DNA of 64,000 nt from a virus. Lineage: Duplodnaviria > Caudoviricetes. Below the pieces are notes generated by a model. The model searched no databases and was not told the DNA's origin. It saw nothing but the letters and a program-made list of their open reading frames with translations. This document shows, one piece after another, positions 2,296 to 59,920 of the stretch; the first letter of the stretch is position 1, and the number at the start of each line of letters is the position of its first letter. Both the position numbers and the translations under genes were made by a program. The stretch lies in the IMG/VR virus record IMGVR_UViG_3300021979_000004, positions 1-64,000 of that record. One strand, 5' to 3'.

Positions 2296-2601
2296 TTACT
2301 TTTCTAGTTTATCTTTATCCCATTGTTGGGCATTATTTAGTGAGCTATTAATAGCATCAATCTTTTCTTTAGCGCCAGATAGTGTACGCTGTACAGCCAT
2401 AAAGTTTTTCATACCAGAAGGTATAGCTTGTAGAAGCGCACTTGCGTCATCACTCATGTCATCCATTGAATCGATAACTTTCTGAAGCTCTTTGAGCTTA
2501 TCTGCAATTTCTTTTTTAGCTTTGTTAGTATCTACCGCTTCGTTTAGTTCTTTACCGGAAGACACGCTTTCAATTAGTTCTAGGTGCTTTTTAATAGACA
2601 T
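2296..2601 (-). CDS. Late-promoter coiled-coil protein with capsid-targeting-like N-terminus (candidate internal head protein)
   Basis: TATAAATA at 2638-2645 (minus); N-terminus MSIKKHLELIES; own terminator. Confidence 0.5.
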   Translation of the reverse strand: MSIKKHLELIESVSSGKELNEAVDTNKAKKEIADKLKELQKVIDSMDDMSDDASALLQAIPSGMKNFMAVQRTLSGAKEKIDAINSSLNNAQQWDKDKLEK

Positions 2602-2859
2602 TTCTTTTTTCCTTTATAGTTTATAATTTGATATATCTATTTATACTATTATTCACCTATGCTTTTCATAAGAGCAAGCTTTGCTTTTTCATAGCTATCA
2701 ACAAGTTGCTTATTGGATGTATTCTGTTTATTAAGTCCGTAAAAATAGTTTCCGTTAATCGATTTTGTAACCCAACCGATCAACTTATCATTTAAATAAA
2801 AAGCGGTTCCGTAACAAGTTTCTACAAAATACATTTCTCACCTTTAATATTAATAAAAT

Positions 2860-2936
2860 TGGTCGGAGCAGTAGGAATTGAACCTACGACCTCTGCATCC
2901 CAAATGCAGCGCACTACCAGACTGTGCTATACTCCG
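2860..2936 (-). tRNA. tRNA-Pro(TGG)
   Basis: Cloverleaf, loop TT-TGG-GA, CCA end. Confidence 0.95.
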
Positions 2937-3266
2937 TTAAAATTGGTCACCTACATACTTAAGTTTACCATTTTCCTTGACATACTCTTTAATACGCTCA
3001 CCATTATATTCTTCAATAATGGTCTGAGTCAAGCGTCCAGCTTCAATGTCGGCACCCATGCTGACAGCATAATATGTCATATCAACAACTACATATTCGT
3101 GACCTTTATCATTGGTTTCAGTTTTGATAATTTTTGCATGTTTCCACTGCAAAACCTTATCATAAAACTTTTGAAACCGTTTAGTATTTCTTACTTTAAC
3201 TTTCATAGTCACCTCCACTTTTTCTAATATAATTATAACATAATAGTTAAGTGACTACAACAAAAT

Positions 3267-3349
3267 TGGCACCCAAGGTAGGATTCGAACCTACGTTTTC
3301 AACTCCAACTACGCTTACTTGGTTCGTAGCCAAGCACGGTTACTTGGGT
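3267..3349 (-). tRNA. Atypical tRNA-Arg(ACG) lacking a D-arm
   Basis: Acceptor ACCCAAG/CTTGGGT+GCCA, anticodon arm CTTGG-CTACGAA-CCAAG, canonical T-arm; only 8 nt where the D-arm should be. Confidence 0.65.
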
Positions 3350-3355
3350 ATAAAT

Positions 3356-3445
3356 TGGCAGAGAGTGTGGGATTCGAACCCACGGAGCCTTTTCAGGCTC
3401 GGTTCCTTAGCAGGGAACTGGTTTCGACCGCTCACCCAACTCTCT
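3356..3445 (-). tRNA. tRNA-Ser(GCT)
   Basis: Long variable arm, loop CT-GCT-AA, CCA end. Confidence 0.95.
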
Positions 3446-3479
3446 TTACTAGAAGCCATATATCGTTTATAATTACTCC

Positions 3480-3851
3480 ATGGCTATCGAAAAATTTTAT
3501 TACATAGAATGGAAAATTCCTTGTAAGTATGAACCTATTGGTTTTCATGAGGATACACTTGATTGTGAGCGTCAAGAATATTACGTCACATCATATAAAG
3601 AATTTGTATCCGAAAAAATTAAATCTATAAAAAATAAATATAAATTAAAAGTTTATTATTCTAAAACAGAATCACAACATTTATATCTAGCATTAAATGT
3701 ACATTACCGATATCATTATATAACGGCTGTGATTTATCTAAAAGTAGGAATTTTGAAACTTAACTATAAACCTGATACAAACCTAATTAAGTTAAAATTC
3801 CCCAAGATATATAAGAACTGTCGCATTGTATCAAGATACGAACAAGTCTAA
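3480..3851 (+). CDS. Hypothetical protein inserted antisense within the tRNA cluster
   Basis: 123-aa ORF filling the gap between tRNA-Ser and tRNA-Glu. Confidence 0.6.
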   Translation: MAIEKFYYIEWKIPCKYEPIGFHEDTLDCERQEYYVTSYKEFVSEKIKSIKNKYKLKVYYSKTESQHLYLALNVHYRYHYITAVIYLKVGILKLNYKPDTNLIKLKFPKIYKNCRIVSRYEQV

Positions 3852-3854
3852 AAT

Positions 3855-3929
3855 TGGTGCCCTAGAGGGGTTTCGATCCCCTTGCTTCCGGTTGAAAGCC
3901 GGATGATTTAGCCAGTAATCGACTAGGGC
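3855..3929 (-). tRNA. tRNA-Glu(TTC)
   Basis: Cloverleaf, loop CT-TTC-AA, CCA end. Confidence 0.93.
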
Positions 3930-3974
3930 TAGAATACTTTGGCTTATGAATATTCACCAAAATAAAAATGAAAT

Positions 3975-4053
3975 TGGTTGGGGCTGGGGGATTTGAACCC
4001 ACCGACCAATTGGTTAAAAGCCAACTGCTCTATCCAGACTGAGCTAAGCCCCA
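3975..4053 (-). tRNA. tRNA-Lys(TTT)
   Basis: Cloverleaf, loop CT-TTT-AA, CCA end. Confidence 0.95.
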
Positions 4054-4058
4054 GAAAA

Positions 4059-4174
4059 TAACATGTGAAATCCTTCAGTTTGAAGTCGCCAATCGTGACG
4101 CTTTCCACCATATGATTAGTACAGTGACAAGGGTTGATTATCATTAAAATGACATCACCGTATTTCACATGTTA
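4059..4174 (-). ncRNA. Unknown structured RNA closed by a 13-bp perfect helix
   Basis: TAACATGTGAAAT (4059-4071) is the reverse complement of 4162-4174; sits between tRNA-Ile and tRNA-Lys. Confidence 0.5.
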
Positions 4175-4183
4175 CAAAAAAAT

Positions 4184-4260
4184 TGGTAGGAAGTACTAGG
4201 TTCGAACTAGTGACCTCACCGTTATCAGCGGTGCGCTCTAACCAACTGAGCTAACTTCCT
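4184..4260 (-). tRNA. tRNA-Ile(GAT)
   Basis: Cloverleaf, loop CT-GAT-AA, CCA end. Confidence 0.95.
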
Positions 4261-4265
4261 AAAAT

Positions 4266-4341
4266 TGGTGGAGACGGTGAGAATCAAACTCACCACACAA
4301 ACCTTGCAAAGGTTCGTCGCCCTCTTGGTACATGCGCCCCC
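4266..4341 (-). tRNA. tRNA-Ala(TGC), atypical D-arm
   Basis: Acceptor GGGGGCG/CGTCTCC with the G3:U70 Ala determinant, loop TT-TGC-AA, ACCA end. Confidence 0.8.
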
Positions 4342-4355
4342 ATAAATTATCTATA

Positions 4356-4368
4356 TTTTTAAAGAACA
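4356..4368 (-). promoter_or_regulatory. boxA-like antitermination element
   Basis: TGTTCTTTAAAAA on the minus strand between tRNA-Phe and tRNA-Ala; matches rrn boxA (TGCTCTTTAACA). Confidence 0.6.
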
Positions 4369-4385
4369 TGGCCTAAAGCCTAATT

Positions 4386-4461
4386 TGGTGGATTGGGCAG
4401 GGATTGAACCTGCGACCATCGGAATTTCAACCCGACACTCTACCAACTGAGTTACCAATCC
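4386..4461 (-). tRNA. tRNA-Phe(GAA)
   Basis: Cloverleaf, loop TT-GAA-AT, CCA end. Confidence 0.95.
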
Positions 4462-4475
4462 TAAACTTCTAATTT

Positions 4476-4550
4476 TGGAGCGGGTAAACGGTTTCGAACC
4501 GATGCACGGAGGGTGGAAGCCTCCCGCTCTACCAACTGAGCTATACCCGC
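4476..4550 (-). tRNA. tRNA-Gly(TCC)
   Basis: Cloverleaf, loop CT-TCC-AC, CCA end. Confidence 0.95.
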
Positions 4551-13028: not shown

Positions 13029-14009
13029 ATGAAAATTAATGAAGTGGATATACCGGAAGAGAATGCGTTGTTCGAAAAAATAATAGCATCGAAGTATTTC
13101 AACGATAACATTTTACCTTATATTATAAAAAATCGTATGCCCCCAGAGTTAATACATGGAACTTATAAGTTAGAGCCAAGAAAGGTTTTTTACAATAAAG
13201 GTCGTGGCAGGCCAGTTGATACATCCAGATTAATACACGATTTGGTTAACCAACAGTCGAAGGAAAAGTTTGGGGTTGAAGTCAGAAACTTACTGTTTGC
13301 CTCTCAGTCTGCCGAAGTATCAGAGAACTATGGGTCAACAATAACAATTATTCCATTAGATGATGATTATAGATTTTACTACAGCGATATCGTAGCTGAC
13401 ATGTACACATCATCAAATGGTATTTTTAGCTTCACTGAATATAACAAGAAACGAGGGAAGGTAGTTTTAGATGCAGTAAACAGCGATCAAGGCAAAAGGT
13501 TTCAATCTGAAATATACAAAGCAATTACAGGTAGTGATGGTATGACACAATCTATAACCTATTACTTGTACAGTGTTGTTTACAGTGTCGGTTTCTATGG
13601 CGGAACACTAGAAGATAATATTTTTGTTTTCCAAAGCTTAGATGAAATGCGTGACGCAAAGAATTGGACAATACCCGCTAAGCACATGATAAACTCTATC
13701 AAAAACTGTTATAGAAAACTTGTTGAAAAAGAAAACATCTATGATGTTGATGACTTGAATTTTAGAAACGCACAAAACCTGCTCAAAGATTTTGTTACAT
13801 TTATTATAGATCATTTAATTGAAATGGACATAGAAACTTTGAAACAACGTGCATACATGTACGTGTCTGATTTGAAAGAAACAACAGACCTTTATGAGAT
13901 AAATGAAGCACATGAGATAATGTGTTCAAAAGGAAACTATGCCACATTGAGTACATTCAAAGGCGACATGCATAGTCTGGTTAAATATTATAAGAGACGA
14001 TATCAATAA
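13029..14009 (+). CDS. ART-like paralog 1 (candidate internal head protein)
   Basis: AATAAATA at 13000-13007; MKINE start; motifs IHGT, RPVDT, RNLLFAS..YG, HEIM shared with five paralogs. Confidence 0.55.
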   Translation: MKINEVDIPEENALFEKIIASKYFNDNILPYIIKNRMPPELIHGTYKLEPRKVFYNKGRGRPVDTSRLIHDLVNQQSKEKFGVEVRNLLFASQSAEVSENYGSTITIIPLDDDYRFYYSDIVADMYTSSNGIFSFTEYNKKRGKVVLDAVNSDQGKRFQSEIYKAITGSDGMTQSITYYLYSVVYSVGFYGGTLEDNIFVFQSLDEMRDAKNWTIPAKHMINSIKNCYRKLVEKENIYDVDDLNFRNAQNLLKDFVTFIIDHLIEMDIETLKQRAYMYVSDLKETTDLYEINEAHEIMCSKGNYATLSTFKGDMHSLVKYYKRRYQ

Positions 14010-14031
14010 AAAAGGGGCTAACGCCCCTTTA
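14006..14031. terminator. Bidirectional terminator between convergent genes
   Basis: AAAAAGGGGC-TAAC-GCCCCTTTT. Confidence 0.8.
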
Positions 14032-15490: not shown

Positions 15491-15573
15491 ATTAATACCC
15501 TCGATTCAATCAATGGTTAAGCTATCATACCATTATTTACCTGTCAATAAATACTATAAACTATAGGATTCAA

Positions 15574-16332
15574 TTGATGAAAATACAACACCTTAACGAA
15601 AGCATAAAGTCATTAACTAGTGATGAATTACAATCACTACTAGAGACAGACTATTCAGAAGCATACGAACATGCAAAAGACGGTCATTATATCTTCAAAG
15701 GCATGTACATGAACTTAGACCCTTCTATGGCACATTTACTTGAGCCGTTAAAGGATCGCAAATCAAAGAACACATTAAACTATTACACACTATGGATGAA
15801 TAATAGCCAAGAGTGGTCAGAATACCCTAAACGCAGTGTAATATGTACCAATAGTTCGCGCAATGCAAATGAATATGGATTCCAAACCTTTATAATACTT
15901 CCTAAAAATGGCACTAAGATCGGCGTATGTGATGACTTCGACTTATGGTCTTCATTTGATTTTGGTGGTGGAATGGCAGACGCAAGCGATGTGAATTATT
16001 TTTTCAATGCGATGTTTGAAAAGTTTTATAAAAAAACACCAGAAACTTACGAAGACATGGTTGGGATGCTAAAGGGTATTGAAGTTAATGACGAAACATT
16101 CAATTATGTTTCATCCGCTATGTCCAGACAAGGATTAAACAAGTCGAAGCTTCTAAATATTTTCAAAGAGCATGGAGCGTATGGATTGTTTGCTAGTCTA
16201 TTCAGCACCAAAGGTTTTGAAATGACTACGGTTGGTGGTGTACATCAATATAATGACAAAGCCAGAGAGGTTTGGTTCGATAACCAGTTTATCGCCATTG
16301 ATATTGAAAGTAAGGGCGATATTATCCGATGA
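15574..16332 (+). CDS. ART-like paralog 2 (most divergent)
   Basis: AATAAATA at 15546-15553; MKIQHLNE; IFKG, RSVICTN..ANEYG, REVWF. Confidence 0.5.
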   Translation: MMKIQHLNESIKSLTSDELQSLLETDYSEAYEHAKDGHYIFKGMYMNLDPSMAHLLEPLKDRKSKNTLNYYTLWMNNSQEWSEYPKRSVICTNSSRNANEYGFQTFIILPKNGTKIGVCDDFDLWSSFDFGGGMADASDVNYFFNAMFEKFYKKTPETYEDMVGMLKGIEVNDETFNYVSSAMSRQGLNKSKLLNIFKEHGAYGLFASLFSTKGFEMTTVGGVHQYNDKAREVWFDNQFIAIDIESKGDIIR

Positions 16333-16850
16333 AGATATCAGAAACCCAATATAAGTTTAATGATGAAATGCTAGGTTCTCATTCCGGTCAAACTGATATG
16401 AAACTATCATTAGAACACAATGGTGATATTGTAGCTCATTTGGTTTACACCGTGTATCAAGGTGTTCCCGCTATCTCTATGATAGAAGTTAAAGAGAAAA
16501 GAAAGTCATATGGTTCGGCTCTAGTCAAAAAGTTACAATCATTATACCCTGACGAAGAAATAGAATGGGGGATGACAACAGACGAAGGTGAAAAATTACG
16601 TAAGAGCTTTAATTATAAAAAAGTTCCAACAGAACATTATGATGATTTTGTCAGGTATAAGCGAGTAAAGAAAGAGTTGGATACGTACCAATATAGAGCA
16701 AATGAATTATGGTCAAAAGATACCTTGAGTGATGAAGAGAAGAAAGAACTTAAGAGTATTGGCGAAAAACTAAATGACTTGAACGATGAAGTTTATGACT
16801 TAGAAGATATCATAGATTTCGAAAAGCCTTACAAAAAGATAATACAATAG
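16329..16850 (+). CDS. GNAT-fold acetyltransferase-like protein
   Basis: ISMIEVKEKRKSYGSALVKKL resembles GNAT motif A; MKISE N-terminus. Confidence 0.5.
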   Translation: MKISETQYKFNDEMLGSHSGQTDMKLSLEHNGDIVAHLVYTVYQGVPAISMIEVKEKRKSYGSALVKKLQSLYPDEEIEWGMTTDEGEKLRKSFNYKKVPTEHYDDFVRYKRVKKELDTYQYRANELWSKDTLSDEEKKELKSIGEKLNDLNDEVYDLEDIIDFEKPYKKIIQ

Positions 16851-16857
16851 GACTGTT

Positions 16858-17907
16858 ATGAAGATTAAGCACTTACTAGAAGATAGAAAAGATTATAGCA
16901 ATATTATCAAAAACCCATTCTTTCAAAAATATATTCTTCCCAAGATCAACAAAGAAATGTTCGATGGCGTTGAAAAGTTTTTATACAAGAAAGAAAAGGA
17001 TTTTACGAGTTCTTTCAGAATGGATCGTTCACTATTGTTTACTCTTTCTATGGAAGTTTTCACACATACCAAAGATATACTTTTACATGGCAGTAACCAT
17101 GGTCATTATGAAACTGGTGAAACGTATACGCTTACTCACCGAGAAGGTCCAAGGGATAGCGATTCAACCATGCATAATATGGTTAATAAAGTATCTGAAG
17201 ATGTGTATGACGAATTTATTAGAAACCTGATGTTTGTAACAAGGTTATTTTCGACAGCATCAGATTATGCAGACAAGTATACCGACCTCTATATAATCAT
17301 TCCGTTGGATACTCCAACTTTTTATTATAGTGATAAGTATGAAGATTTCTTTGTTGACTATCTAGGTGAAGGTAACGCAGTTAGAAATTTGCTGAGAGAA
17401 GTTATGAACACTACTAATTTCTTAGTAGGAGACAATGAGAAAGAATTTAAAGCGTTAGGTGATGAATGGGATTATGATGCTTGGTTATTTTATGAGCTAT
17501 GTAAGAATAGTATTGAAAAGTCACTGAAGGATAAAACTAAAATATTATTCGACAACCTTACAAACAACAACTATCTCGAAACCTTAACCGGTGATATTAA
17601 AGCCGAGATTGTAGATCATATAGAATTTTTAATGAAGAAACAGTTTGATAAAAAAGCCAGTGATAAATTTTTAAAAGAAATTTCTTCACTAGTAAGTCCA
17701 ATAGTTGATCAGTATACAAGAAATATATACAAAGCAATCCATAACCTAGCTGAAAGTTACGTAAAGAGTGTTAAACGAACTAACAATTTCACAGAGGCAA
17801 GTGAAGATTCTGAATTAATGATGGACTGTAATCAGTTCACCGTGATTGAAATGAACGACTTCGCTAACATAGTGGTTGAAGTTTACAAATCCCAACGCGA
17901 AAGTTAA
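16858..17907 (+). CDS. ART-like paralog 3
   Basis: MKIKHLLE; LHGS, GPRDS, RNLMFVT..ASDY, SELMM. Confidence 0.55.
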   Translation: MKIKHLLEDRKDYSNIIKNPFFQKYILPKINKEMFDGVEKFLYKKEKDFTSSFRMDRSLLFTLSMEVFTHTKDILLHGSNHGHYETGETYTLTHREGPRDSDSTMHNMVNKVSEDVYDEFIRNLMFVTRLFSTASDYADKYTDLYIIIPLDTPTFYYSDKYEDFFVDYLGEGNAVRNLLREVMNTTNFLVGDNEKEFKALGDEWDYDAWLFYELCKNSIEKSLKDKTKILFDNLTNNNYLETLTGDIKAEIVDHIEFLMKKQFDKKASDKFLKEISSLVSPIVDQYTRNIYKAIHNLAESYVKSVKRTNNFTEASEDSELMMDCNQFTVIEMNDFANIVVEVYKSQRES

Positions 17908-18891: not shown

Positions 18892-19835
18892 CGTATTAAA
18901 CTTTATCTACTTTACCATCTTCGAAAGTAAACCACAATACCCATGTGTCAAAAATCTTTTGCATCCGTCGAAGTGTGTCTGAATATTTAGTCTTATTTCG
19001 TTCGTTAGGGTATTCTTCAATTGGGTCTAGAATCCAATCCATTGCCAAAACTATACAACCCACGCACATCATAAAGAGCCATGGGAAAATAGTCAAGGCT
19101 AACAAAAACCGAACAAACTTTCTCATCATATTCATTACTTTACCATCCTAATTCATTCATAAATCTACGCTTAATATAGTCGTATTGCACAGGGTCTTTT
19201 AATTTTAAAATATACCACTGTTCTTTTGTAAGACTAACCTGAACCGTGATCATACAATATTCTCTTGCTAGAAACTTCTCTTTCTCTCTTTTTATAAGTA
19301 CCTTTTCTTTAGGTGGGTAATACGAAAAGAAAGGTATCTGAAACTGGTCTTTTAAATAATATGTCACTACGTCTGACATATACCCTTTATCTATGAGTCC
19401 TTCCATCAACCAGTCATTTTTAATTTCTGGGTGACATGTAAACGAATTAACAAACTCATACAGTTCAGGGTTTTCCTGAAGTAATTTATTTTTAAATGCC
19501 TTTGACCTGATAAACGAATACAAGTCAAATGAATGTAAAACTTCATGTGAAAAATAAGATTTTGTTTCCATCCATGAATAATACCAGTTCCGTGAACCAA
19601 GTCAAGGGAATTCGAAGAATTCATGGTGAGGCTTGTCCTCACCAATAAAACTATTATTATCTGTATTCCATTTCATTCCATACAGATATGAAATATCATT
19701 CTGATATTTCTAATTTATCTATTTCTTTTGTAACTAAAACTCTTACTTTTTCTTTATAAAGAAATATAAAGATTAGGTTAGACTTTTTAGGTTAGACTTT
19801 CATTGATAAATATTCTTATCTAGGAGTTGAATTAT

Positions 19836-20684
19836 ATGAAGATAAAACACTTGCTTAATGAATCGCATGAACATATCTACGAAGCAATAGTAGAGAGTAA
19901 ATTTTTTAAAGAAAATTATGAAGATAAGATCAAGTATGCAGTTGAGAATGATATTGAGTTTCAATACTTAGAAGAAATTGCTTGGTTGTTTCATGCTAGT
20001 GACAAACTTCCTGAAGAAGCTGGTATTGTTAATCAAAGGTTGAGAGAAAGACCACGTGATTCATCGCCATTATTTCATAGTATGGTGAATAGATACGCTA
20101 TGGAAAAAGTAAATGTGCCTGTACGTAACCTTATCTTCTCACATACGATGCGTCATAAAGTTCGTGATTATGGCGATGACATCTATGTTCTATTCCCATT
20201 GGATAACAACTATAAGCTTTTTTATGCGGATTCTATCAACGATATGACCGAGCATTATACTGTTTCCATTAATAATATTTCTCAAGTTAATAAGAAGTTT
20301 GATGAATTCTGTGAGAAATACGGTTTAGAAAAATATGAATATGAAATACCTAGTTCATTGGCAGTAGGAATCTATTCTTCTGAAAGCGAGGAAGAACTTA
20401 AAGAGAAAGTAGGAAATATGTTCAAGATGATAGACTACAGTTCTGAAAAGTTTTCACAAGATGAATTAACTGATAAGTTAACTGATTACATACTGCAAGA
20501 TTTTAATGCTAAAGCCAGTGACTATGCAGAACATTTGAAAGTTGAGTCTAAGTTGGTTAAGAGGGATGAAGAGTACATGCTTTACGGTGGAAACATTGCA
20601 GTGTTAAGTACTGAAGGCAATTATACCAGTGCGTTCTCAAGGTTCAAGGACTATCTGGTTAAAAAGTATAGCCAAGGGTTGTAA
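19836..20684 (+). CDS. ART-like paralog 4
   Basis: GATAAATA at 19805-19812; MKIKHLLNE; LFHAS, RPRDS, RNLIFS..RDYG, EEYML. Confidence 0.55.
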   Translation: MKIKHLLNESHEHIYEAIVESKFFKENYEDKIKYAVENDIEFQYLEEIAWLFHASDKLPEEAGIVNQRLRERPRDSSPLFHSMVNRYAMEKVNVPVRNLIFSHTMRHKVRDYGDDIYVLFPLDNNYKLFYADSINDMTEHYTVSINNISQVNKKFDEFCEKYGLEKYEYEIPSSLAVGIYSSESEEELKEKVGNMFKMIDYSSEKFSQDELTDKLTDYILQDFNAKASDYAEHLKVESKLVKRDEEYMLYGGNIAVLSTEGNYTSAFSRFKDYLVKKYSQGL

Positions 20685-37594: not shown

Positions 37595-37598
37595 ACCG

Positions 37599-38312
37599 AA
37601 TTGAGTATGAATATCTATTGGTTTTGATATTTTCTTATTGTATCGATATGTTTATATGCTAGGTTTATAAAATAGTCAGAAGAAATGCCTATGTTAGAAA
37701 CGAATTCTTTTTCTGAAATTTCTTCATCAGTATCATCATAAAGGGTTGATCCTATATCATCGAACCGAATAGCATATTTATTTTTATCACTGAATACATA
37801 AATTAAAACGAATTTGTCTTTTTTAAAATATTCATTCCAATCATCAGGTGAGTATGATGAAGTGCACCATTTTGTTGATCTTCCATAGTACTTGCTAGCT
37901 GAATGATTAAGAGGCACAATTGCGAATAAATTGCCATTATTATATAAAATTATTTTATTAGATTTCTCTTTCTTTTTTTGTTGACGATTAGATTCTTTAT
38001 GTCGGTTCTTATCAACATAATCAACGAATGAATTCCATCCTTCCTTTACCCAATAGGATATATCCTTATGATCTATGAGTTGTTTTTGGGATAATTTTTT
38101 AAATGTTTCTATATAATCTTTAACTAAAGACTCGTCATTATTTTTAGAAAATATCCTATAAGCATCTTTGTAAGACTCAAATAATATTAAATCTGTTATT
38201 TTCATCATATAATCCTTGATTATTATCTAATGTATGATACTATTTATTTAAGAGAGAACCTTTCAAACCTAGATAATAACAGGGCTAGGCTCTCAAAAAA
38301 TTGAGTATGAAT
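37599..38312. repeat. 14-bp direct repeat AATTGAGTATGAAT flanking an inverted gene cassette
   Basis: Identical copies at 37599-37612 and 38299-38312. Confidence 0.8.
37615..38208 (-). CDS. PcfJ-like domain protein with capsid-targeting-like N-terminus
   Basis: ASKYYGRSTKWCTS motif; MKITDLILFE; AATAAATA at 38241-38248 (minus). Confidence 0.5.
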   Translation of the reverse strand: MMKITDLILFESYKDAYRIFSKNNDESLVKDYIETFKKLSQKQLIDHKDISYWVKEGWNSFVDYVDKNRHKESNRQQKKKEKSNKIILYNNGNLFAIVPLNHSASKYYGRSTKWCTSSYSPDDWNEYFKKDKFVLIYVFSDKNKYAIRFDDIGSTLYDDTDEEISEKEFVSNIGISSDYFINLAYKHIDTIRKYQNQ

Positions 38313-39781: not shown

Positions 39782-39795
39782 AATTGGAGAAATAT

Positions 39796-42700: not shown

Positions 42701-43465
42701 GGAAGCCGTGGATAAAGGTAAGCTGGTATCGGGAACCGTTGTTAAGTATCCTATGTCATATATGCTTGAAGATGTCATTAACATTTGTAAAACTGTAGGA
42801 ATCAATGTTCGATACAATGAAGTTGGTACAGACGAATACAAAAAGTACGGATGTATGAGTGTTTCGTTGACATAAAGATAATATTCCTGTATTATTAATA
42901 ATAAATCAAGGGAGAAATCTTATGGCACGTTTCAATGAAGTTAATCAGGCAATCAAAAAAGAATTTCCGAATCTTGATATTGAAGTAGTACGTGGTGAAG
43001 GCTATGTTTACTTCACTGGTGACTCAGCTTATGAACATGATGTTGAATCTATCATGACACATCCAGTAAGCACGTCCACTGAAGACCTTATCAGAATGTG
43101 TAAAGAAGAGTTAAAAGACCTTGCACAATAATCAATAAGCTAGTATAATGGTTATATAAAGTTGATCAGAGGCAGAACTTATGAACGTATCATCTTTCTA
43201 CTACAACGAAGATCAAGAAATGGCAGTGGTGGTTTTGAAAAACGGTGATCAGTATTCTTTTGACTCTTACAATAATACTGAAGAGCTTGATGGAATTGTC
43301 GATGAGTTCATTTATAAATATGATGAGGCTATTTCAAAGTTCTCGCCCAACGAAGACGATGAAGTTATCCATAGCTTCGAAGACAGTGAGTGGGAAGATA
43401 TCACTCATGTTTATGTAGACCTCAAGTTCGTATCTGGTAATTATATTCCAGAACGACTTAAGTAA
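39796..43465 (+). other. Array of hypothetical early genes
   Basis: ORF track (first start moved out of the tRNA). Confidence 0.7.
41431..41515 (+). tRNA. tRNA-Leu(CAA)
   Basis: Type II cloverleaf, loop CT-CAA-AA, CCA end. Confidence 0.95.
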
Positions 43466-43525
43466 AAGTAAGGGACTATTGACAGTATACTAATAAATGC
43501 TAAACTGTTTATAGTTAATGATTAA

Positions 43526-43603
43526 GCGTCTGTAGCTCAGTTGGTTAGTAGCAACCGTCTCATAAACGGTAGGTCGGTGGTTCAAGTCCACCCAGACGCA
43601 CCA
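43526..43603 (+). tRNA. tRNA with CAT anticodon (elongator Met or Ile2)
   Basis: ACCGT-CT-CAT-AA-ACGGT, CCA end. Confidence 0.92.
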
Positions 43604-46596: not shown

Positions 46597-47286
46597 ATGC
46601 CAAGCATGTATAAACGATTAACCGATTACTTAGAATACCTAGAAAATAGTGTATATAACCGTGATGAGGTTGATTCTCGTGACTTCCTAAACTTTGAGCC
46701 TAAAGTGGGAGTTGGAAACAATAACATCGTAAGCTACACAACATCAGGTCTAACATTTACCGTAACAGAAACGCGAATATTTTTAGGTGGGTACTCACAC
46801 ATTGTTAGTAGTCTTCCATATACGTTACCTTCTAATACATTGTCTTATGTTTATTTGGAAAAAGGATCGGGTCGTGATGATATAACTATTTCTCACACAA
46901 CCACCGAGCTTCAAAACTCTTTTAATAAAATTTATATAGCTAAAGTTGAAACGAATGCATCCAGTATTACTAATGTTGATGCATATTCAGTGACACCATT
47001 TGGTTCCTTTGCGGACTATGAGAAAATGTCTTCGTTCACTACAACGGTTACGGTAGCATCCGGTTCGTCTTATGCTATAACCCTAAGTCAGTTGAGTAAT
47101 ATTAATACATTAAATAAAACGTTCTTAGACTTTACGATTCAATACAGTGTGTTTGATTCTCAATCTAGTACATATCGATATCCGGTTGTAGGAATAGAAC
47201 AGCGAATAAATTCTACTGCGGATACCTTGACAATAACAAACAATACCGGCTCTTCTGTAGATATTACAATAAATATTCATGGATAA
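46597..47286 (+). CDS. Short paralog of the 853-aa structural protein
   Basis: RLTDYLEYLEN..EV.SRD and FLGGY..VYLE..KI.IAK shared with 44031-46592. Confidence 0.6.
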   Translation: MPSMYKRLTDYLEYLENSVYNRDEVDSRDFLNFEPKVGVGNNNIVSYTTSGLTFTVTETRIFLGGYSHIVSSLPYTLPSNTLSYVYLEKGSGRDDITISHTTTELQNSFNKIYIAKVETNASSITNVDAYSVTPFGSFADYEKMSSFTTTVTVASGSSYAITLSQLSNINTLNKTFLDFTIQYSVFDSQSSTYRYPVVGIEQRINSTADTLTITNNTGSSVDITINIHG

Positions 47287-47306: not shown

Positions 47307-47699
47307 ATGAAGATATATGATTTATTAGAAGCTCCGGTTCCCAAACCCCTTGATAATGACATTGAAGATGCTATCGAACATGCTGATACCGAAGGCAATG
47401 GATGGGATAGAACAGACTTCCATCTTGAGTATGAAGGATACATGTCTGTTGATGAGATTGGTCAATATGACGATATAGATGGTTGGTTGGAAGTACATAC
47501 AGTAGAAGACCTAGAAGATTTTCGTGACGGTAAGTTTATGAATTTAGAAAAAGAACCGGCTCCTATTATTGTTATTGTATATCCTGATGAAGGTGGTTGT
47601 CATGAAGAAATTGGCGATGGTCGTGGACGCGTAAACTATGCTAACGCTACTGGCTCCAAGCTTCATGTTTATAAACTAACTCACAAATCTTGTATGTAA
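47307..47699 (+). CDS. ParB/sulfiredoxin-like protein with capsid-targeting-like N-terminus
   Basis: PIIV...IGDGRGRV.YA motif; MKIYDLLE; AATAAATA at 47268-47275. Confidence 0.5.
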   Translation: MKIYDLLEAPVPKPLDNDIEDAIEHADTEGNGWDRTDFHLEYEGYMSVDEIGQYDDIDGWLEVHTVEDLEDFRDGKFMNLEKEPAPIIVIVYPDEGGCHEEIGDGRGRVNYANATGSKLHVYKLTHKSCM

Positions 47700-48614: not shown

Positions 48615-51600
48615 AGCTTAAAGGTAAACGGGTAGAAAAACCTAAAATCTATACTGGTAAGAAGAATGCTAAACGTCCGATGGAGGAACGTTTAGATGAT
48701 TATATTGAATTCACTCACAATACTAAAAATTATTCTGATGCTGGATTCTTTGAAGAAGTTAAAGATTATATTGCTGACCTCAAAGAGCGTATTAAAGAGC
48801 TAGAGGATAAAAATGATATCTAATAAAACTAAAATCAAATTGATGAAAAAGTTGTATTTTTATTCCAGACAAAAACTTAGAAAACTTATCCTCAGTGAGC
48901 GTAAGGTAGATACCAAATGTCATAACTGCAACCAATGGGATTCACTGGTCGAGCTAGAATATGGACCATCTGATTTATTTTCAACATCTTATGGCTATGG
49001 CGTGACCTGTTCTAATTGTAAGAACACTACATACTTTAACTGTGAGCTTGCTCCTATACCATTACGTTGTGACCCAAATGGAACTCCAATACAATAATAA
49101 TGAGCGACGTAATTTATTCAGTTGTAATATCTTATCTTCGATCTAGTGTAGAGATTTCTGAATTGAAGTTAACATATGACGAAGATTACAAACAGAATAT
49201 GTACATTGGTATAGATAGCGAAGGTTTGTGTGGTTATTTTACGTCAGATATAGAATGCCATGCTATAACACAGGATTATCATGATCCAAAATTACATTAT
49301 TTCACAGACGATGTACAAAGTGCAGTTGCCAACCTTAGTGATGAAATGTCATTCACCTATTATAAACTTCTTTAGCGCTTTACTTTTCATTTTTATTCCT
49401 CTATAATGGTATAAAACATTGTAGGAGAATTGCTATGCGAGTTAAAGCTATCGATATCACATCCCAACGGTCTGACGGTCGTTCCAAAGTAACTTCTATC
49501 ACCCTCGGAAAAGAGTATGAAGTTGCTGCTATCGAAGGTGATCGTTACGTCCTTCTTAGTGACCAGCACAAACTCACACGCCACTCACAATATCGATTTG
49601 AAGTGGTTGACAACTCACCTGTACCTACCGTGCGTGAAGCATACAACAAACTGTCTCACCCAATTCGTATGAAAGCAAAAGCACTTCAGTCACAAGTGGA
49701 TGATCTTGAAGTTGAAGTTGCTATGCTGAAAAAAGAATTGGAAAAGATTAAGTCTGGTAATTGATTGTAGCGTTTAACTAGTTTATAATTAAATTATCAG
49801 GAGGGAATTGTTATGATGAATAGTAAGCCAATCATTGGTATTTGTATCGCTCGTACAGAAACATCAACAGACCTTGTGGATGTTATCTTTGATGTCATGG
49901 AATATCTGGATTATTCTGAAGACTTTGGTATCGATCCTGATGACTTGGATAACCTAGACGAAAGTCTTTTTCAAAATCGTGACGGTGTGTCGTGTTTCAA
50001 CCTCGTCAAACTGTTCTTTCAATGGTCTGAAAGTGTAGGTGATCAAACTACCATTCAGGTTCATGAAACAGCATGTGGTGATGTAGCATTTGCTTTCACA
50101 CACAATGAGTTTAATTACAATACTGATCTTATTCCATGGCGACAAGATGATTGTTATACACTCACGGTTTCAGATATGAATATGATTATCGAAATGACCA
50201 AGGTGTATGATGATTTCTGCCGGTCTACCATGAACGAAACACTGTATGAACATTTTTCAAATCTTGGAAATATTGGTCTTCATTACGTTGCAAAATAAAA
50301 TTTTATTCTGTATACTGTAGTTAACTATTTGGGAGAATTATATGGGCATTAAAAAACTTATTCTGAGTCTACCGTTTGTGAAAGATGAGATTCGTCGCAA
50401 TTCACTGTATTCGGTTGAACAAACTCGTAGATACTTGCGCGAAGATGAAGAGCGTCGTCACGAGCAAATGATGAACCTGCGTCTGGGTATGCCCATTATT
50501 ATCCTGACTCCCGAAACTACACCAGAACTTGGTGTCATCACTGGTTGGTTCAACAAAGATGTGCCTATCGTTAAGGTATACAGTAATCGAATCGTGAAAG
50601 AAGTCACTCTTTTTTCAACGTACATTCCTTACAACGCACAGAACTTTCAACTTCTCTATAATATGAAAAAGAGCGAAGCGTTGGGGTTGATTAATCCTGT
50701 ACATCAAGAGAAGGGGAAGGGATTCACTATCAAGAATGAAGATAATCGTGATGGTCGTGTATACATGGACACGGTTAACGATGCTGCACAGAATGGTTTC
50801 TTTGAGTTGGCAAAAGAATACTGGAAAAAGAAGCGAGGCATGGCATATGAGTAAAATTCTGATAAACGCATTAGTAATTTTCTTTACTATTGTGTCCGTG
50901 TCAATGTTTGGATTTTATCTGGATGTTAATAGCTTCGTGGCACTTACTGGTGACCATCTTATGAAGTCGTGTGTCTACGGTTTTATTGGTCTTTTATTTT
51001 CATACCTAGTTGCAACGGTGATTTAAATGGATGAAAGAATCGAGTATGTAGATAACAAAATAATCTTTCTAGTTGAACGTGGGTTTACTTCAAGTTGTGG
51101 AAAGAATATTACTAAAGGTCAACGTCTCAAGTGTATTGCGTATTACTTTAAAGGTAATGATCTTTTCTTGATTATCATTGATGAGGTTGGTAAAGAGACT
51201 ACTTGTATCATAGACAAAATTATGAATTACACCCACGAGTGTTCGGAACCACTTCGAAACGATATTGAAGTTGGTGATGTTGTAGCTATTCTCATGGAAG
51301 GAAAGAAATTCATTGGAAAGGTACTAGCGGAAAAAGAAAACGAATATGTAGTTTCTATCAATGGGATTTCAAGCTTTACTAAAATTGATGAGGCTGTTGT
51401 AGATAAATCAATGGTTGCACATTTTGAAGATTGTTGTACTATTGTTTGTGATTATAAAAAAGACCCTAAAAATCCTGAAATGCGTTTCGATTACTCTATT
51501 GAGTATCTACGTACCCATAAGAGAATGCAATTCTGGGATCATCAGGGGGATGTCTTTGTAAAAGAACAATAAGGTATGCTATGTTAAAAAAAGAACAAAA

Positions 51601-54600: not shown

Positions 54601-55783
54601 ATGTGGTGATGATTCAGAGAAATTATCAAAGATAGTAAACTTTATGAAACTGTTGGGAGAGGATCATGTCTAGGTATGTTATCACATCAGTAGACTTTCA
54701 AAAGAATATAGATTCTCTTGCGAAGTTCAATCGCGAGAATGTAAAGTCATATCAAAAGAAACATCAGAAAACAAGGTTTCTTGATAAAGCTACTGGTCAG
54801 CATATGTATACCCTATGGCTTGTTGTAGACATGGATCAAATGACTAAGATCAAAAACTACTGTAAAGTCAAAAACATCAAAATGCCTTTGTGTAAAGAGG
54901 AAATATAATCATGGCTTCATCTTATGGTGTCGTTAAAAATAATATTCAAAACTTTCTGAAAAATACGAAAGCATATAACTATTCTCCTATTGACGATAAG
55001 ATTGCTTTTATGGAGAAGAATTTTCATTCAGTACCGGGGCAATTCTATGAGCTTATGGCTTTTGGAAATGTGAAACACATGGTACACAACGGTGAAGTTA
55101 TCTTTGGTGTTTTTGTAGACTCTAAGTATAAAGATGAAAGTTCGCTTGGTGTATTTTCCTTTGTCATTTATGATGAAAAACTCTATGTTTCTGATCGACT
55201 TAATGCGAAAGTTTTCAATCCAGCTATGCGAAAGTTCAACGGTTTGTTTAAGGTATACTGTGGCTTTAGTTCGGAAAAAGCATTTGAATATTTTGTTGAA
55301 TGTTTTGCATGTGTCAATGATAAAGATCGGGATATAAAAGAAATCATCGTGGATAATATCTGTGAAGAAGTAACTGATCTTTTAAATGAATATCATGATA
55401 ATCATGTTGAATATCTCAATGCTAAACGAACCTATGTAGATACAAACACTGAAGTTCATCGTAGGGTTCGTGAGTCTGAAGAGCAACAGATTGTAAATGA
55501 TTTACAGGCAAGGTTGGCAGCGGCTAAAGAAAACCTGAACAGAAAGCGTAATGAAATTATTGAAGAGGAAAACCTAGAACTTTTGAAAGCAAGATCACAG
55601 ACACTAAAGTCTCACAGTGAAAGTCTTCTCTTGTACTATCGTGAGACTATTAAGTATCATATTACATCAAAGCCTATCCCGAATGGCCTTTCTAATAATA
55701 TAGAAGGAACCTTTTTGAGAATGTTTGATAAGGTTAAGATAAAAGCCGTTGATGCATCAAAAGAAAATAAAAGTGGGGATTAA
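48611..55783 (+). other. Array of hypothetical early genes
   Basis: ORF track; includes a secreted coiled-coil protein at 53079-53597. Confidence 0.75.
53608..54438 (+). CDS. ATP-grasp domain protein (R2K/DUF4343-like)
   Basis: FVRPNSPKK.FTG, EIRYFIVDG, FVCDVG, VVELNC..SGWY. Confidence 0.75.
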   Translation: MKPYWVVDEYMLEVSERKNEILSFLNDNCECSIRPLQRFSSMNFPEQIDINSSKSTCGIVYGSIQFVTKAVKETNLYPSSYYDPTRYELMNYMSEYQPSLFLNSDGFFVSFMWLYKRLSYYQSILGKKIFVRPNSPKKLFTGLIVESTDDLDLMFKTSSVTYNTPVFISCAKHLEREIRYFIVDGQVVSHSQYHKNHEICITEDDDIECRKLAQKVADQTEEFHNTFVCDVGLWNGIPRVVELNCINTSGWYLGDINAIMGSLNDKLIKDYKDYEL

Positions 55784-56808
55784 CCCCACTTCTCATTACC
55801 ACTCATACCTGTTACTTCTATTATATAAAAATCGGAATCTGGTGCGGTTAGGGACGTATTGGACCATAACAAATTACCATCTGCATCAAACTTATGTATA
55901 TTTGCATTTGTTGTTGAAAGATAAATGTTTCCATCCATATCACACTCTATGTCTTGTGGTATATCGCCACTCAATGATAATGATATTTCCCATAATTTAT
56001 TACCACTAGCATCTACCTTACCTATGAAATTTCCCACTGATGAAGCAACTAGTGAATTACCATCGTAGTCTACTGCGATAAAAGAAAGGTTTGTGCTGAA
56101 AGCCGGTGACTCCCAAGAAACGTCACCACTTTCATTTAATTTAATAACGGTATCACTTACTGCATTATTGTTTATAAACACCACCCCATTATCTGGGGTC
56201 GCACCTAACCTATAAGTACCATTTACATCACCAGCTTCATAATCCCATACTAAATTAGCAGAAGAGTCATAGCGATGTATATAGTGATCATCTGCTACAC
56301 CACCAATAAATACATCACCATTTGTTGCAGTATCCATAGATTGGTAAGTTTTAGATGAAGTAGTGGCATCACCGGCTTGTATGTTCATTTGAGAAAAAAG
56401 AATTGTAGATAAATCATTTACATCATAGACATCAAGTCTATTGCTAGAACCTAACATGGTATACAAAACACCATCTTTTGTTACCGATGTAGTTCTATAT
56501 ACATTATTAACTGCGGTACTATCTAGAGTATTTCCAGTAAGACCATCATATGCTGTTATTTCTCTATAACCGGCTGGATATATAACATTGTCTTTCGATA
56601 CTGCAAACTCAGGATGATACTGTGTTAATGCTTGTTCTACGATCAATGTTTCTGAACCATCGCTCAAATCTATTCTATATATTTTTTCTGGTGTGCTAGT
56701 ATTATAGTACTCTAGTGCGTATAGGTATTGATCATACTGAGGCTTTGTAAAAATTTGACGCATACGAACGCCACCAAACTTCCTCATACCTCTTATAATT
56801 ATTGACAT
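55780..56808 (-). CDS. Beta-propeller (PQQ-like repeat) virion protein
   Basis: Repeated K.D..G...W units; AATAAATA upstream; terminator near 55770-55792. Confidence 0.6.
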   Translation of the reverse strand: MSIIIRGMRKFGGVRMRQIFTKPQYDQYLYALEYYNTSTPEKIYRIDLSDGSETLIVEQALTQYHPEFAVSKDNVIYPAGYREITAYDGLTGNTLDSTAVNNVYRTTSVTKDGVLYTMLGSSNRLDVYDVNDLSTILFSQMNIQAGDATTSSKTYQSMDTATNGDVFIGGVADDHYIHRYDSSANLVWDYEAGDVNGTYRLGATPDNGVVFINNNAVSDTVIKLNESGDVSWESPAFSTNLSFIAVDYDGNSLVASSVGNFIGKVDASGNKLWEISLSLSGDIPQDIECDMDGNIYLSTTNANIHKFDADGNLLWSNTSLTAPDSDFYIIEVTGMSGNEKWG

Positions 56809-56972
56809 AAACTTATTCTCCTAATTTATATCTATTATTTATTAGAAAATATTTTTTTAAATATGCTATCTTTTTCACTAAAAGGGTTGCACTTTAAAAT
56901 TAGATCATCTATAATGGTTACATAAGGTTGAGGAACAGACCTCACCGACTAAGCCAAAAGAGGAATTACATT

Positions 56973-57263
56973 ATGACTAACGCATCTACTACTCAAGCAC
57001 AAACCACTCGTCCTGTAGGTCGTCCGCTGTCCAAGCGCGGTCGTAGCGCAAAACGTGCAGTCGAGAAGTTTCTGGAACAGCACGAAGGTCAGTTCACTGC
57101 CGCTGATGTACGTCGAGTAGCCAAGCAGTCCAAGGTTACTGTACGTAACCGCCTGAACGCTCTGGTTGCCGCTGGTGCCATCAAGCAAGTTGCCAGTGTA
57201 CCGGTTCAGAAGGCAGGTAAAGCTACTCGTGGTCGTCCTCTGGCGGTTTACGAAAAAGCATAA
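56973..57263 (+). CDS. Basic winged-HTH DNA-binding protein with GRP hooks
   Basis: VGRP..., FTAADV.....SKVTVRNRLNALV..G, RGRP..VY; strong early promoter at 56887-56915. Confidence 0.6.
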   Translation: MTNASTTQAQTTRPVGRPLSKRGRSAKRAVEKFLEQHEGQFTAADVRRVAKQSKVTVRNRLNALVAAGAIKQVASVPVQKAGKATRGRPLAVYEKA

Positions 57264-57530
57264 GGAAAGTGTTGACAGGGATGTCCTTTTAGGATTATAA
57301 TGAAGTCCTAAGATCGAAAAAGTAAAGAGACAACTAGATAACTAGGAATAAGGGGGGTAGGTTATGTAATACTTTAAACTTAATAATATTTTAAATATAT
57401 AGATAGAGTAAACTTAGACAAATGAAAAAGTGTAAAAGAGAATCTAACTAATATAGGAGAAATTATTATGCGTTAATACATAACTTATAATACTTTTTAA
57501 TTTTCAAAATATCTAAGACGAAGAAAAGAA

Positions 57531-57560
57531 AAAGGGGTCAATTAAGACCCCTTTTTTATT
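57531..57560. terminator. Bidirectional terminator
   Basis: AAAAAGGGGTC-AATTAA-GACCCCTTTTTT. Confidence 0.8.
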
Positions 57561-58414
57561 TTTAGTACTTCAGAAAGAAAGTCGTTGAAATTCTCAGCAT
57601 ATACTGCCGCTATCTCATCTGCTTGAATCATAATCTCTTCGTTATTAATATCATGCATTGATTGAGTAACTTCAATACTATTAACATAGTTATTGAACTG
57701 CTTGAATATTTTCTTTCCATATTCATAAAAACGCTTCTCTAGAATCTTCACATCACTCTGCTTATAGTTACTAATCCCTTCTGGATCGTTGTAATATTCA
57801 GATGCCATCTTACGTGCTAACTTTTTAAGAGACTTATCAAATGTCTTTAGATTCTTAAAATCGAATTCATATCTTTCGAAGGTATCAGTTAGACTTTCCA
57901 TGATCATTTCATCGTAAGTATCTTGGAATTGTAATAGAACTTCATTGACAATAAAGAATATCATATCACTGTCGGTATTGTAATGTGCAGTAAAATCTTT
58001 AACATTTTCACTATAAAACAAACGATAATCGCCTAATGGAAACAGTACATATGGGTTGCCATATTCTGACGCTGTTTTTATATTCTTATCAGCAAAGATA
58101 AGATTTCTAATTGGGACACCAAACTTTTCGCTTGATAGCATGTTTACATATTTGTGAATTTCTATATTAGTATCAGTGGGAATACGATTCTCACTGTATG
58201 GCGTAATAACAAGATATGGAGTTGTATATTTGTGTGATCCACGAAAAATATTGGCAAACTCATTCACTAAGTTATCGTTTTCCAAGTCTTCAGGTTCGAG
58301 TGTTTTTAATTGCATACTGTACATTTCGTTGAAGTACTTTGAGTTAGCAACACGTTCTATGATCTGCCTATAGTTTCCTTGGTTGTCGTCTTCTAATAAA
58401 TGTTTTATTAGCAT
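57542..58414 (-). CDS. ART-like paralog 5
   Basis: MLIKHLLE; IFRGS, RIPTDT, RNLIFA..ASEYG, EEIMI. Confidence 0.55.
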   Translation of the reverse strand: MLIKHLLEDDNQGNYRQIIERVANSKYFNEMYSMQLKTLEPEDLENDNLVNEFANIFRGSHKYTTPYLVITPYSENRIPTDTNIEIHKYVNMLSSEKFGVPIRNLIFADKNIKTASEYGNPYVLFPLGDYRLFYSENVKDFTAHYNTDSDMIFFIVNEVLLQFQDTYDEMIMESLTDTFERYEFDFKNLKTFDKSLKKLARKMASEYYNDPEGISNYKQSDVKILEKRFYEYGKKIFKQFNNYVNSIEVTQSMHDINNEEIMIQADEIAAVYAENFNDFLSEVLKIKKGS

Positions 58415-59259
58415 TATTTCCTATACCTTTTAGTCATTTCTATAAAAAATTCATATTCTAGTTTAATATCGATTGCTATTATTTCAGGAGATTGTATCAT
58501 TGCTTCAGCATTACCAACATCACCAACCATCTTTGTCACCTTCATATCAGTAACGTATTTCTCTATGGCATCAAGTTGTCCATTTATATATTCGGATATT
58601 GTTTCATGTAACAACTCTTCTGAAACGACAACTTTTTCATAGGTATCCTGCACACTTTTATATATAATTTCCGAAACTTTTTTGAGATTTCGGTTTATTG
58701 TTTCTCGAAAACTTTTATGATCTTCAACTGGTATACCATCAATTAATACTTCCACATCCATTTTAACAGGAACGTAAGCCTTATAGTTACCAAACAACTT
58801 CCTCATAGCTCTCATAACCATTGTTGAGAGCTTTATATCTGCGTCATAAGAAGTAGTAAAGTCTCTGACTTTATCATTGTAGTATATATTGTAATCACCA
58901 ATTGGAAACAAAAGATAAGGGTTCCCATAATCTTTTAATGGACCCGCATGAAGTCTGGAAAAGATTAAGTCACGAACACTTACCCCAAGAACTTCATTAC
59001 TTTTACTATTAGCAAATGCATGATACTGTAAGATCGTATCAAGTGGCTTTCTTTTTTTGTAAGGTTTGATTATAGTAACAGGCTTAACTGACTCCATACC
59101 ACGATACAGCTTACGGATTGGATCATCATCGATATCACGGTTTTTATCATTAAGCCATGATTCATAGTTATTTTTGAAGAATTCCGAGTTTCTAATTTGA
59201 TCAAAGACCTCATCTGGTATAAAAGAAACCTCATTCTCAAATAATTGTTTTATTAGCAT
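58414..59259 (-). CDS. ART-like paralog 6
   Basis: MLIKQLFE; LYRGM, KPLDT, RDLIFS..KDYG, AEAMI; AATAAATA at 59283-59290 (minus). Confidence 0.55.
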   Translation of the reverse strand: MLIKQLFENEVSFIPDEVFDQIRNSEFFKNNYESWLNDKNRDIDDDPIRKLYRGMESVKPVTIIKPYKKRKPLDTILQYHAFANSKSNEVLGVSVRDLIFSRLHAGPLKDYGNPYLLFPIGDYNIYYNDKVRDFTTSYDADIKLSTMVMRAMRKLFGNYKAYVPVKMDVEVLIDGIPVEDHKSFRETINRNLKKVSEIIYKSVQDTYEKVVVSEELLHETISEYINGQLDAIEKYVTDMKVTKMVGDVGNAEAMIQSPEIIAIDIKLEYEFFIEMTKRYRK

Positions 59260-59356
59260 TTATCTATTTCCTAGTTTATTAATATTTATTCTTTACACAA
59301 AACAATCTTTTGTTACTATAAATAGTATAAACAATGAACACATAGGAAGGTAAATT

Positions 59357-59920
59357 ATGGCTAATTTTGAAATAACAGATTTAAGTAAGTTCCTTGAAGA
59401 ACAATCTGAAGAAATTAAAGTTGTAGAAGAAAAGAAAGACAAAGTTGAAGATAAAGAGGAAACCATGGAAGATGAGCATGGTGAAGTTGATGAAGAAGAT
59501 GTATTAATGCCACCTGAAGACTCTGAGGGAGAAGATAGCTCATATGATGGCGATATGCCAGAACACTGCGAAAACTTCTGCCTACAGTCCATGAGAATGT
59601 ATGTGAACGTGCACCTATGGCATTTCCAAACAGATAGCTATGCAGAACACGAAGCATTGGAAGATTATTACGAAGACTTATTTGAGTTGACCGATACCTT
59701 TGTTGAAACAACTATTGCAAACCAAGGTTCTTTATCGTGTGACCATTCCTATAACTTAGAAATTCTACCTTATAGTGAAATGCTCGATGAGATTGAATCG
59801 TATAAGGAATTGGTGGAGCAACATAAAGAAGGTATTGAAGACGAAGGTATGGTTAATACACTTGATGATATTTTGACTATTACCGACGAAGTACTATATA
59901 AGTTGAAGAATTTGAAATGA
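59357..59920 (+). CDS. Ferritin/Dps-like four-helix protein with acidic N-terminal extension
   Basis: HLWHFQT.SYAEHEALEDYYEDL..LTDTFVE; TATAAATA at 59317-59324. Confidence 0.75.
   Translation: MANFEITDLSKFLEEQSEEIKVVEEKKDKVEDKEETMEDEHGEVDEEDVLMPPEDSEGEDSSYDGDMPEHCENFCLQSMRMYVNVHLWHFQTDSYAEHEALEDYYEDLFELTDTFVETTIANQGSLSCDHSYNLEILPYSEMLDEIESYKELVEQHKEGIEDEGMVNTLDDILTITDEVLYKLKNLK

Follow-up and report, generated by a model that had tools for sequence, protein, structure and literature searches.

In the head of phage T4, the scaffolding core receives IPI-III and Alt by means of a capsid-targeting sequence (CTS), a peptide of about 10 residues (PMC3012670, PMC9026906; Mullaney and Black 1996). 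The protease gp21 removes the CTS, and the proteins are then ejected with the DNA (PMC3012670, PMC9026906, PMC5694885). A review of T4 already proposes that T4-like phages can load a variety of proteins by means of the CTS (PMC3012670 / PMC9026906). In the phiKZ-like giants (phiKZ, 201phi2-1 and SPN3US), gp175/gp245 process head and ejection proteins: many paralogous head-internal proteins are cut after Glu by this protease, which is related to T4 gp21, and their propeptides are thought to target them to the prohead. There, cleavage is at S/A/G-x-E, and the majority of the propeptides are longer than 100 residues (PMC5694885). Here, we describe a leader peptide of 8-9 residues that opens a dispersed set of late-type genes in the virus record IMGVR_UViG_3300021979_000004. 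We studied the first 64 kb ("the window") of this 217,982-bp linear IMG/VR record, which CheckV rates as 73% complete. Our favoured explanation, to which we give a probability of about 70%, is that the leader is a virion-packaging tag of the T4 capsid-targeting type.

A preliminary description of the window listed eleven genes that begin with such a peptide. All eleven N-termini read exactly as it gave them at the start codons, each of which follows a Shine-Dalgarno-like site:

2296..2601, minus strand: 101-residue late protein, coiled-coil-like, whose leader is a variant, MSIKKHLELIE (a probable leader, not a strong one)
13029..14009, plus strand: paralogue in family A (a candidate for the ADP-ribosyltransferase, or ART, fold) with a degenerate leader, MKINEVDIPE (phrog_15932, E = 2.8e-30; hhalign to family A, 99.9%)
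15577..16332, plus strand: family B protein with leader MKIQHLNE (phrog_12810), a remote homologue of family A
16329..16850, plus strand: GNAT-like acetyltransferase candidate that starts MKISE; leader doubtful
16858..17907, plus strand: family A paralogue with leader MKIKHLLE
19836..20684, plus strand: family A paralogue with leader MKIKHLLNE
37615..38205, minus strand: 196-residue repeat-like protein with leader MKITDLILFE
47307..47699, plus strand: 130-residue ParB/Srx-like candidate with leader MKIYDLLE
57542..58414, minus strand: family A paralogue with leader MLIKHLLE
58414..59259, minus strand: family A paralogue with leader MLIKQLFE
59357..59920, plus strand: DUF5856 protein that starts MANFEITDLSKFLEE (PF19174, E = 2.8e-19, residues 89-183); leader doubtful

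The consensus is M-(K/R/L)-(I/L)-x-(H/Q/D)-L-(L/F/N)-(x)-E. The claim that all eleven proteins share the leader needs trimming. At 16329 the leader is doubtful because MKISE lies inside the GNAT-like fold, which aligns from residue 3; at 59357 it is doubtful because MANFEITDLSKFLEE misfits the motif; and at 13029 it is degenerate. The (L/I)-x-E type of ending held up for 9 of the 11 genes, whose translations have LLE, LNE, LFE, LTE or IPE at residues 6-10. Elsewhere in the fragment, the gene at 75566-76159 begins MSLKKYVELLE, which resembles the N-terminus of 2601. We considered a second leader class for such genes, but the pattern drafted from gp33, gp206 and gp594 of the relative Atu_ph07 missed both 2296 and 75566, and we dropped it. 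We also noticed a 359-residue protein that the preliminary description did not list (60829-61908, plus strand); it lies in the late operon behind 59357, and its start, MKVVNLSE, is a loose match.

To measure how unusual the leader is, we searched the N-termini of the 373 genes in the fragment (our own gene calls) with a strict motif, M-[KRL]-[IL]-x-[HQDKEN]-[LIV]-[LFINT]-(x)-E. It opens 15 of the 373 genes. When we permuted each N-terminal column among the genes, which keeps the MK bias, 5,000 shuffles gave a mean of 0.13 matches and a maximum of 2. Behind internal methionines, the motif matched just 1 of 1,630 times. In other words, N-termini are enriched about 100-fold for the leader, which is nearly absent elsewhere; the exact enrichment is inflated because the strict motif was written after we had seen the data, but the effect is still large. 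A looser pattern matches 21 genes across the fragment. The codons for the Leu, Lys, Arg and His residues of the leader vary freely among the copies. Because these synonymous codons differ, what is conserved is the peptide, not the RNA or DNA, and we reject a cassette or recombination at the nucleotide level as its origin. In AlphaFold models of 57542-58414 (predicted local distance difference test, or pLDDT, of 93) and of 47307 (90 overall), residues 1-7 score below 50 and the body is well packed, as would be expected for a detachable tag.

The preliminary description also stated that each gene or operon follows a late-promoter-like box, and these boxes are all there. The box NATAAATA lies 29-44 nucleotides 5' of eight of the starts (2601, 13029, 15577, 19836, 38205, 47307, 59259 and 59357), and the other three genes are inside tight operons (16329 and 16858 downstream of 15577, and 58414 downstream of 59259). 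The form TATAAATA is that of gp55-type late promoters. The boxes are:

2638..2645, minus strand: TATAAATA, late-promoter-like box for 2601, 44 nucleotides 5' of the start codon
13000..13007, plus strand: AATAAATA, box for 13029
15546..15553, plus strand: AATAAATA, box for the operon 15577-17907
19805..19812, plus strand: GATAAATA, box for 19836
38241..38248, minus strand: AATAAATA, box for 38205
47268..47275, plus strand: AATAAATA, box for 47307
59283..59290, minus strand: AATAAATA, box for the operon 59259-57542
59317..59324, plus strand: TATAAATA, box for the operon from 59357, divergent from the box at 59283-59290

A genome-wide scan of the motif against late promoters, which the preliminary description had proposed, gave a clear association: 14 of the 21 genes with a loose leader have a positioned NATAAATA, at -50 to -25, versus 35 of the 352 other genes (P = 4e-9, Fisher exact test). 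There are 91 copies of NATAAATA on the two strands, about half of them 15-60 nucleotides 5' of start codons, and the starts that they precede include those of a terminase piece and a neck protein. We conclude that the leader is real, that it is common to unrelated families, and that it is linked to late-type promoters.

Four of the eight transcription units are antisense to their neighbours. For the 13029 unit, the one that we examined for a terminator, there is one:

14010..14030, strand not assigned: GC-rich hairpin flanked on each side by a T run; a bidirectional terminator for the genes that converge there

The two divergent boxes at 59283-59290 and 59317-59324 both fit in the 97-nucleotide intergenic region 59260-59356 and serve the family A pair and the 59357 operon. 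Two other antisense genes, 30220-30756 and 55780-56808 (both on the minus strand), have a NATAAATA box and no leader. One of these genes encodes a protein with an F5/8 type C (discoidin) domain, the other a PQQ-like beta-propeller, and both products are likely to be external parts of the virion or its fibres.

By its sequence, the source of this DNA is a jumbo myophage, as yet uncultured and kin to Salicola phage SCTP-2, Pseudomonas phage PA5oct and Atu_ph07. Its 957-residue tail sheath protein shares 54% identity with the SCTP-2 sheath and 38% with the PA5oct sheath, and it is also similar to those of Rak2/121Q-like phages. The fragment has a G+C content of about 35%, and it contains tail, neck and terminase genes. 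These cultured relatives allowed us to ask if the leader is conserved and what it marks.

SCTP-2 has 23 genes with the strict leader, including six tandem family A paralogues beside its terminase gene, all of which start MK[IV]N[DN][IL]L.E. For the leader genes at 156935, 134497, 150806 and 194300, the SCTP-2 orthologues are 26-43% identical (43% for 156935-157771), and the leader is kept. In Atu_ph07, we read eight consecutive genes (gp54-gp61) that encode family B homologues; all of them start M[KR]W.QL[TN]E, and gp62, which is next in the array, starts MRWHQLIE.

The most informative comparison is with the virion of Atu_ph07, in which mass spectrometry identified 140 proteins (PMC6102473, Table S5). 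We considered the whole genome and matched every listed virion mass to an open reading frame (ORF), with gene order kept and none left over. The virion list includes 20 of the 21 leader genes, as found with a pattern for this lineage that was written with the virion list already seen, versus 119 of the 796 other genes (P = 2e-15). The pattern that was set beforehand on the window's genome picks out 6 genes of Atu_ph07, of which 5 are in the virion set (P = 7e-4). Every Atu_ph07 protein that is homologous to family A or B (gp53-63 and gp408) is a virion protein, including the homologues of 15577 (gp53-gp59). The counterpart of the leader in Atu_ph07 marks proteins that are found in the virion.

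Two other features of the Atu_ph07 data touch on the leader. The annotated start of gp407 (303755-304783) is MQINNVNGFKKMKLINLLE, and an internal methionine would give the leader MKLINLLE, so the start may have been annotated 11 codons too early. On the published gel, the 87-kDa gp53 (39484-41820) peaks in band 9 and the 41-kDa gp63 (49504-50592) in band 8. These bands are at or below those of the ~30-kDa paralogues, and some leader proteins may also be cut internally.

The relatives also encode the machinery that a T4-type tag would need. A Peptidase_S77 protease is found in SCTP-2, PA5oct and Atu_ph07 (E = 1e-21 to 5e-24), as is a gp55-like factor. The capsid protein of SCTP-2 matches Pfam's Gp23 and is 58% identical to that of PA5oct, and published tables match the capsid protein of Atu_ph07 to T4 gp23 (PMC6102473). 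The capsid proteins of the relatives start M..LFE...L.EG. In PA5oct, the portal and protease genes flank that of gp150, which is in the slot of T4 gp67 and starts MKINDIITEG; gp153, in the scaffold slot, also bears a leader.

If the leader is a tag of the T4 type, then the late genes would be transcribed from the NATAAATA promoters, and their products would use the leader to dock onto the prohead's scaffolding core. A gp21-type (Peptidase_S77) protease would cut the leader off after (L/I/F)-x-E, and the mature proteins would remain in the head and would probably enter the host with the DNA. Binding to the scaffold, location in the head and the enzymatic activities of the cargo are expectations of this model, as are cleavage and injection.

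The likeness to T4 goes beyond the presence of a short peptide at the N-terminus of late proteins that are otherwise unrelated. The leader ends in a hydrophobic residue, any residue and Glu, and MRLTQLFE and MLIKQLFE can be compared with the start of T4 Alt (MELITELFDE). The relatives have a protease of the gp21 family and a capsid of the gp23 type, and among the cargo is a candidate ADP-ribosyltransferase, the kind of enzyme that T4 has in Alt. Unlike T4, these phages form a distant clade outside the Straboviridae, as the sheath identities show. They have about 20-25 tagged genes per genome instead of a handful, the cargo is mostly 130-470 residues and enzyme-sized, and the consensus is specific to the lineage (MKIKHLLE here, MKINDILKE in SCTP-2 and MRWEQLTE in Atu_ph07). 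Also, we found no sequence homology of the cargo to Alt. We considered the phiKZ-like type of propeptide (about 100 residues or more, with S/A/G-x-E) and rejected it, as the leaders here are 8-9 residues long and have the T4-like ending L/I/F-x-E. There is a further likeness to the polyvalent proteins that phages and conjugative elements encode; Iyer et al. reportedly described them in 2017 as carrying ART-PolyVal, GNAT and ParB-like domains. In both cases, the proposal is that ART-like, GNAT-like and ParB-like domains accompany the DNA as it enters. The polyvalent proteins combine such domains in a fused giant, whereas here every domain has a protein and a leader to itself. We did not find a description of the leader for the SCTP-2/Atu_ph07/PA5oct/Rak2 group in the literature that we searched.

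Several results weigh against a T4-type tag. The strict motif and the Atu_ph07 pattern were both written post hoc, with the data already seen. Six of the 11 listed proteins belong to one superfamily, as do 8 leader genes across the genome, so paralogy is part of the signal. The Atu_ph07 preparation was purified with polyethylene glycol and includes non-structural proteins, so "virion-associated" is not the same as a proven location in the head. The virion proteome of PA5oct (PMC7318152) includes the products of only 3 (gp150, gp205 and gp381) of about 8 leader-like genes; with so few leader genes, the three virion proteins and the scaffold-slot protein make PA5oct uninformative as a proteomic test. 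For all phages of the clade, we infer cleavage and ejection. Finally, the 218-kb fragment has no genes for the portal, prohead protease, scaffold, major capsid protein or gp55-like factor: searches with S77 and Gp23 from Pfam and tblastn with the portal, protease, scaffold and capsid proteins of PA5oct gave no match. (On the same grounds, we rejected the idea that the source is a T4-family phage, or Straboviridae.) The head module and the gp55-like gene are presumably in the missing ~27% of the genome.

The same gaps are what favour a tag that incorporates proteins into the virion without being a cleavable head tag. Such a tag would be retained, or it would direct proteins to the neck, the baseplate or the interior of the tail. 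Virion association is what is seen, in the relative Atu_ph07 alone, cleavage is presumed for a fragment that lacks the protease, and several leader genes are beside tail or neck genes (134497 and 136578 are near the neck gene at 137807). But the leader always ends in (L/I/F)-x-E, which is the gp21 site, the relatives have S77 proteases, small proteins in their head modules bear the same leader, and the leader is a flexible overhang in both AlphaFold models. We consider a tag of this kind unlikely. More prosaically, the shared start might reflect descent from common ancestors plus the MK(I) bias of AT-rich genes, with no role in targeting. MKI-type starts are frequent in AT-rich genomes, 6 of the 11 listed proteins are homologous, and about two thirds of 149 diverse members of family A keep a leader-like start. 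However, shuffles that preserve the bias gave 0.13 matches instead of 15, at least ten families have only residues 1-11 in common, and the leader predicts virion proteins of Atu_ph07 across many families. Descent and bias are largely refuted, and we think it very improbable that they suffice.

If the conserved element instead worked in the mRNA, as a translation enhancer or as a signal at the 5' coding end of late messages, that would account for its constant position downstream of late-type promoters and ribosome-binding sites. But it is the peptide that is kept, not the RNA, and many late genes (for the sheath, neck and terminase proteins) lack the leader, so we give this idea hardly any weight. 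Least probable of all is a regulatory or degradation tag, for instance for Clp-type proteases: PA5oct and Atu_ph07 do encode homologues of ClpX, ClpP, ClpS and ClpA, but the tagged proteins accumulate in virions. We return, then, to the packaging tag of the T4 type and to what it might carry.

The preliminary description viewed the leader as a modular tag that loads diverse enzymes into the head. Loading into the virion is the best-supported part (20 of 21 leader genes in Atu_ph07, and conservation in orthologues), but the cargo is less diverse than claimed, because of the superfamily that accounts for 6 of the 11 listed proteins. The proteins from 13029, 16858, 19836, 57542-58414 and 58414-59259 are paralogues (family A, phrog_15932). 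Family B (15577 and the gene at 180997; phrog_12810) is related to family A (hhalign 99.3%, E = 5e-20), and profile comparison adds the gene at 194300 to this superfamily. "Otherwise unrelated" is therefore true in part. For 47307, 111568, 134497 and 136578, similarity to the family A profile is confined to residues 1-11, which is the leader, and by profile comparison 37615-38205, 150806, 156935/158308 and 205782 have no similarity to family A. The tag is therefore common to at least 10 unrelated families. With the leaders trimmed off, the proteins form at least 14 BLAST groups.

Family A is large, with 3,144 cluster representatives at E <= 0.001 in a large library, and a leader start is present in about two thirds of the best 149 members. 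The superfamily may have an ADP-ribosyltransferase fold: the weak fold matches that support the label include ART-PolyVal clusters in the Atlas. At the level of sequence, the label found no support. None of 113 members of families A and B matches Pfam, hhalign of T4 Alt with family A gives 0.1%, and we rejected kinship to Alt, DUF2441 or ART-PolyVal by sequence. The family A profile matched just designed helical proteins among PDB sequences, and no ART; and PF18760 and PF10386 were not found in the genome. Foldseek against the PDB gave no match at E <= 0.001 for the model of 57542-58414 or of 47307.

The other labels fared unevenly. The 47307 protein is a ParB/Srx-like candidate: it has no Pfam or PHROG match, but its top Foldseek rows (ParB N-domain, Osa and sulfiredoxin) are consistent if weak (E >= 0.5), and it has a DGRGR motif. 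In its orthologues, IGDGRGRVN is invariant, and the leader is kept with a drifting sequence. One orthologue, the 91%-identical P0159, has an extra leader (MKINDIINE) and 19 residues ahead of the usual one, which suggests that leaders are gained through N-terminal extension. A second 130-residue leader protein (111568-111960, minus strand; MLIEHILNE) matches a ParB-like nuclease PHROG and has no BLAST similarity to 47307. For 16329, where the tag is in doubt, the GNAT-like identity is a good lead: there is no Pfam match at E <= 0.01, but the Atlas feature score is 0.94 with 185 shared features, and the predicted structure has template-modeling scores of 0.62-0.63 to GNAT clusters. Its Atlas matches include clusters that fuse GNAT with other domains (LPD11). 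The 38205 protein is repeat-like, with weak homology to gp205, a virion protein of PA5oct that starts MKLFEVFTLYE; the PcfJ-like label for 38205 is a faint lead. The supposed ferritin-like protein, 59357, matches DUF5856 (PF19174), which is the only true Pfam family among the listed proteins. The window's possible cargo is mainly the superfamily that may be ARTs, along with ParB/Srx-like, repeat and small coiled-coil proteins. Outside the window, the genes at 156935-157771 and 158308-159237 (minus strand) are a paralogous pair with leaders MRLTQLFE and MKLYQLFE, and they have a weak match to a virion-structural PHROG.

The window has other features that stood out to us. Its largest ORF (44031-46592, plus strand) encodes 853 residues; tblastn against 50,697 phage records gave no match for it, and it falls into no family of PHROGs or Pfam. 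The fragment's 18 tRNA genes form two groups on opposite strands, at 956-4550 (minus) and 26407-43603 (plus), and the first of these is interleaved with small ORFs and with the leader-bearing late gene at 2296-2601.

The principle of such a tag is already known from T4, and the leader in this clade of jumbo phages is a new instance. For SCTP-2, Atu_ph07, PA5oct and Rak2-like phages, we think it an even bet that a leader tuned to each lineage reveals the whole set of proteins carried in the virion, and that each phage delivers at least 20 host-directed enzymes, dominated by a fast-expanding superfamily of possible ARTs. If the tag works as in T4, then the virion-borne or injected proteins of these mostly uncultured jumbo phages would be predictable from sequence. 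That would give direct pointers to candidate enzymes for host takeover and against host defences, and the short peptide could be used to load foreign proteins into large capsids.

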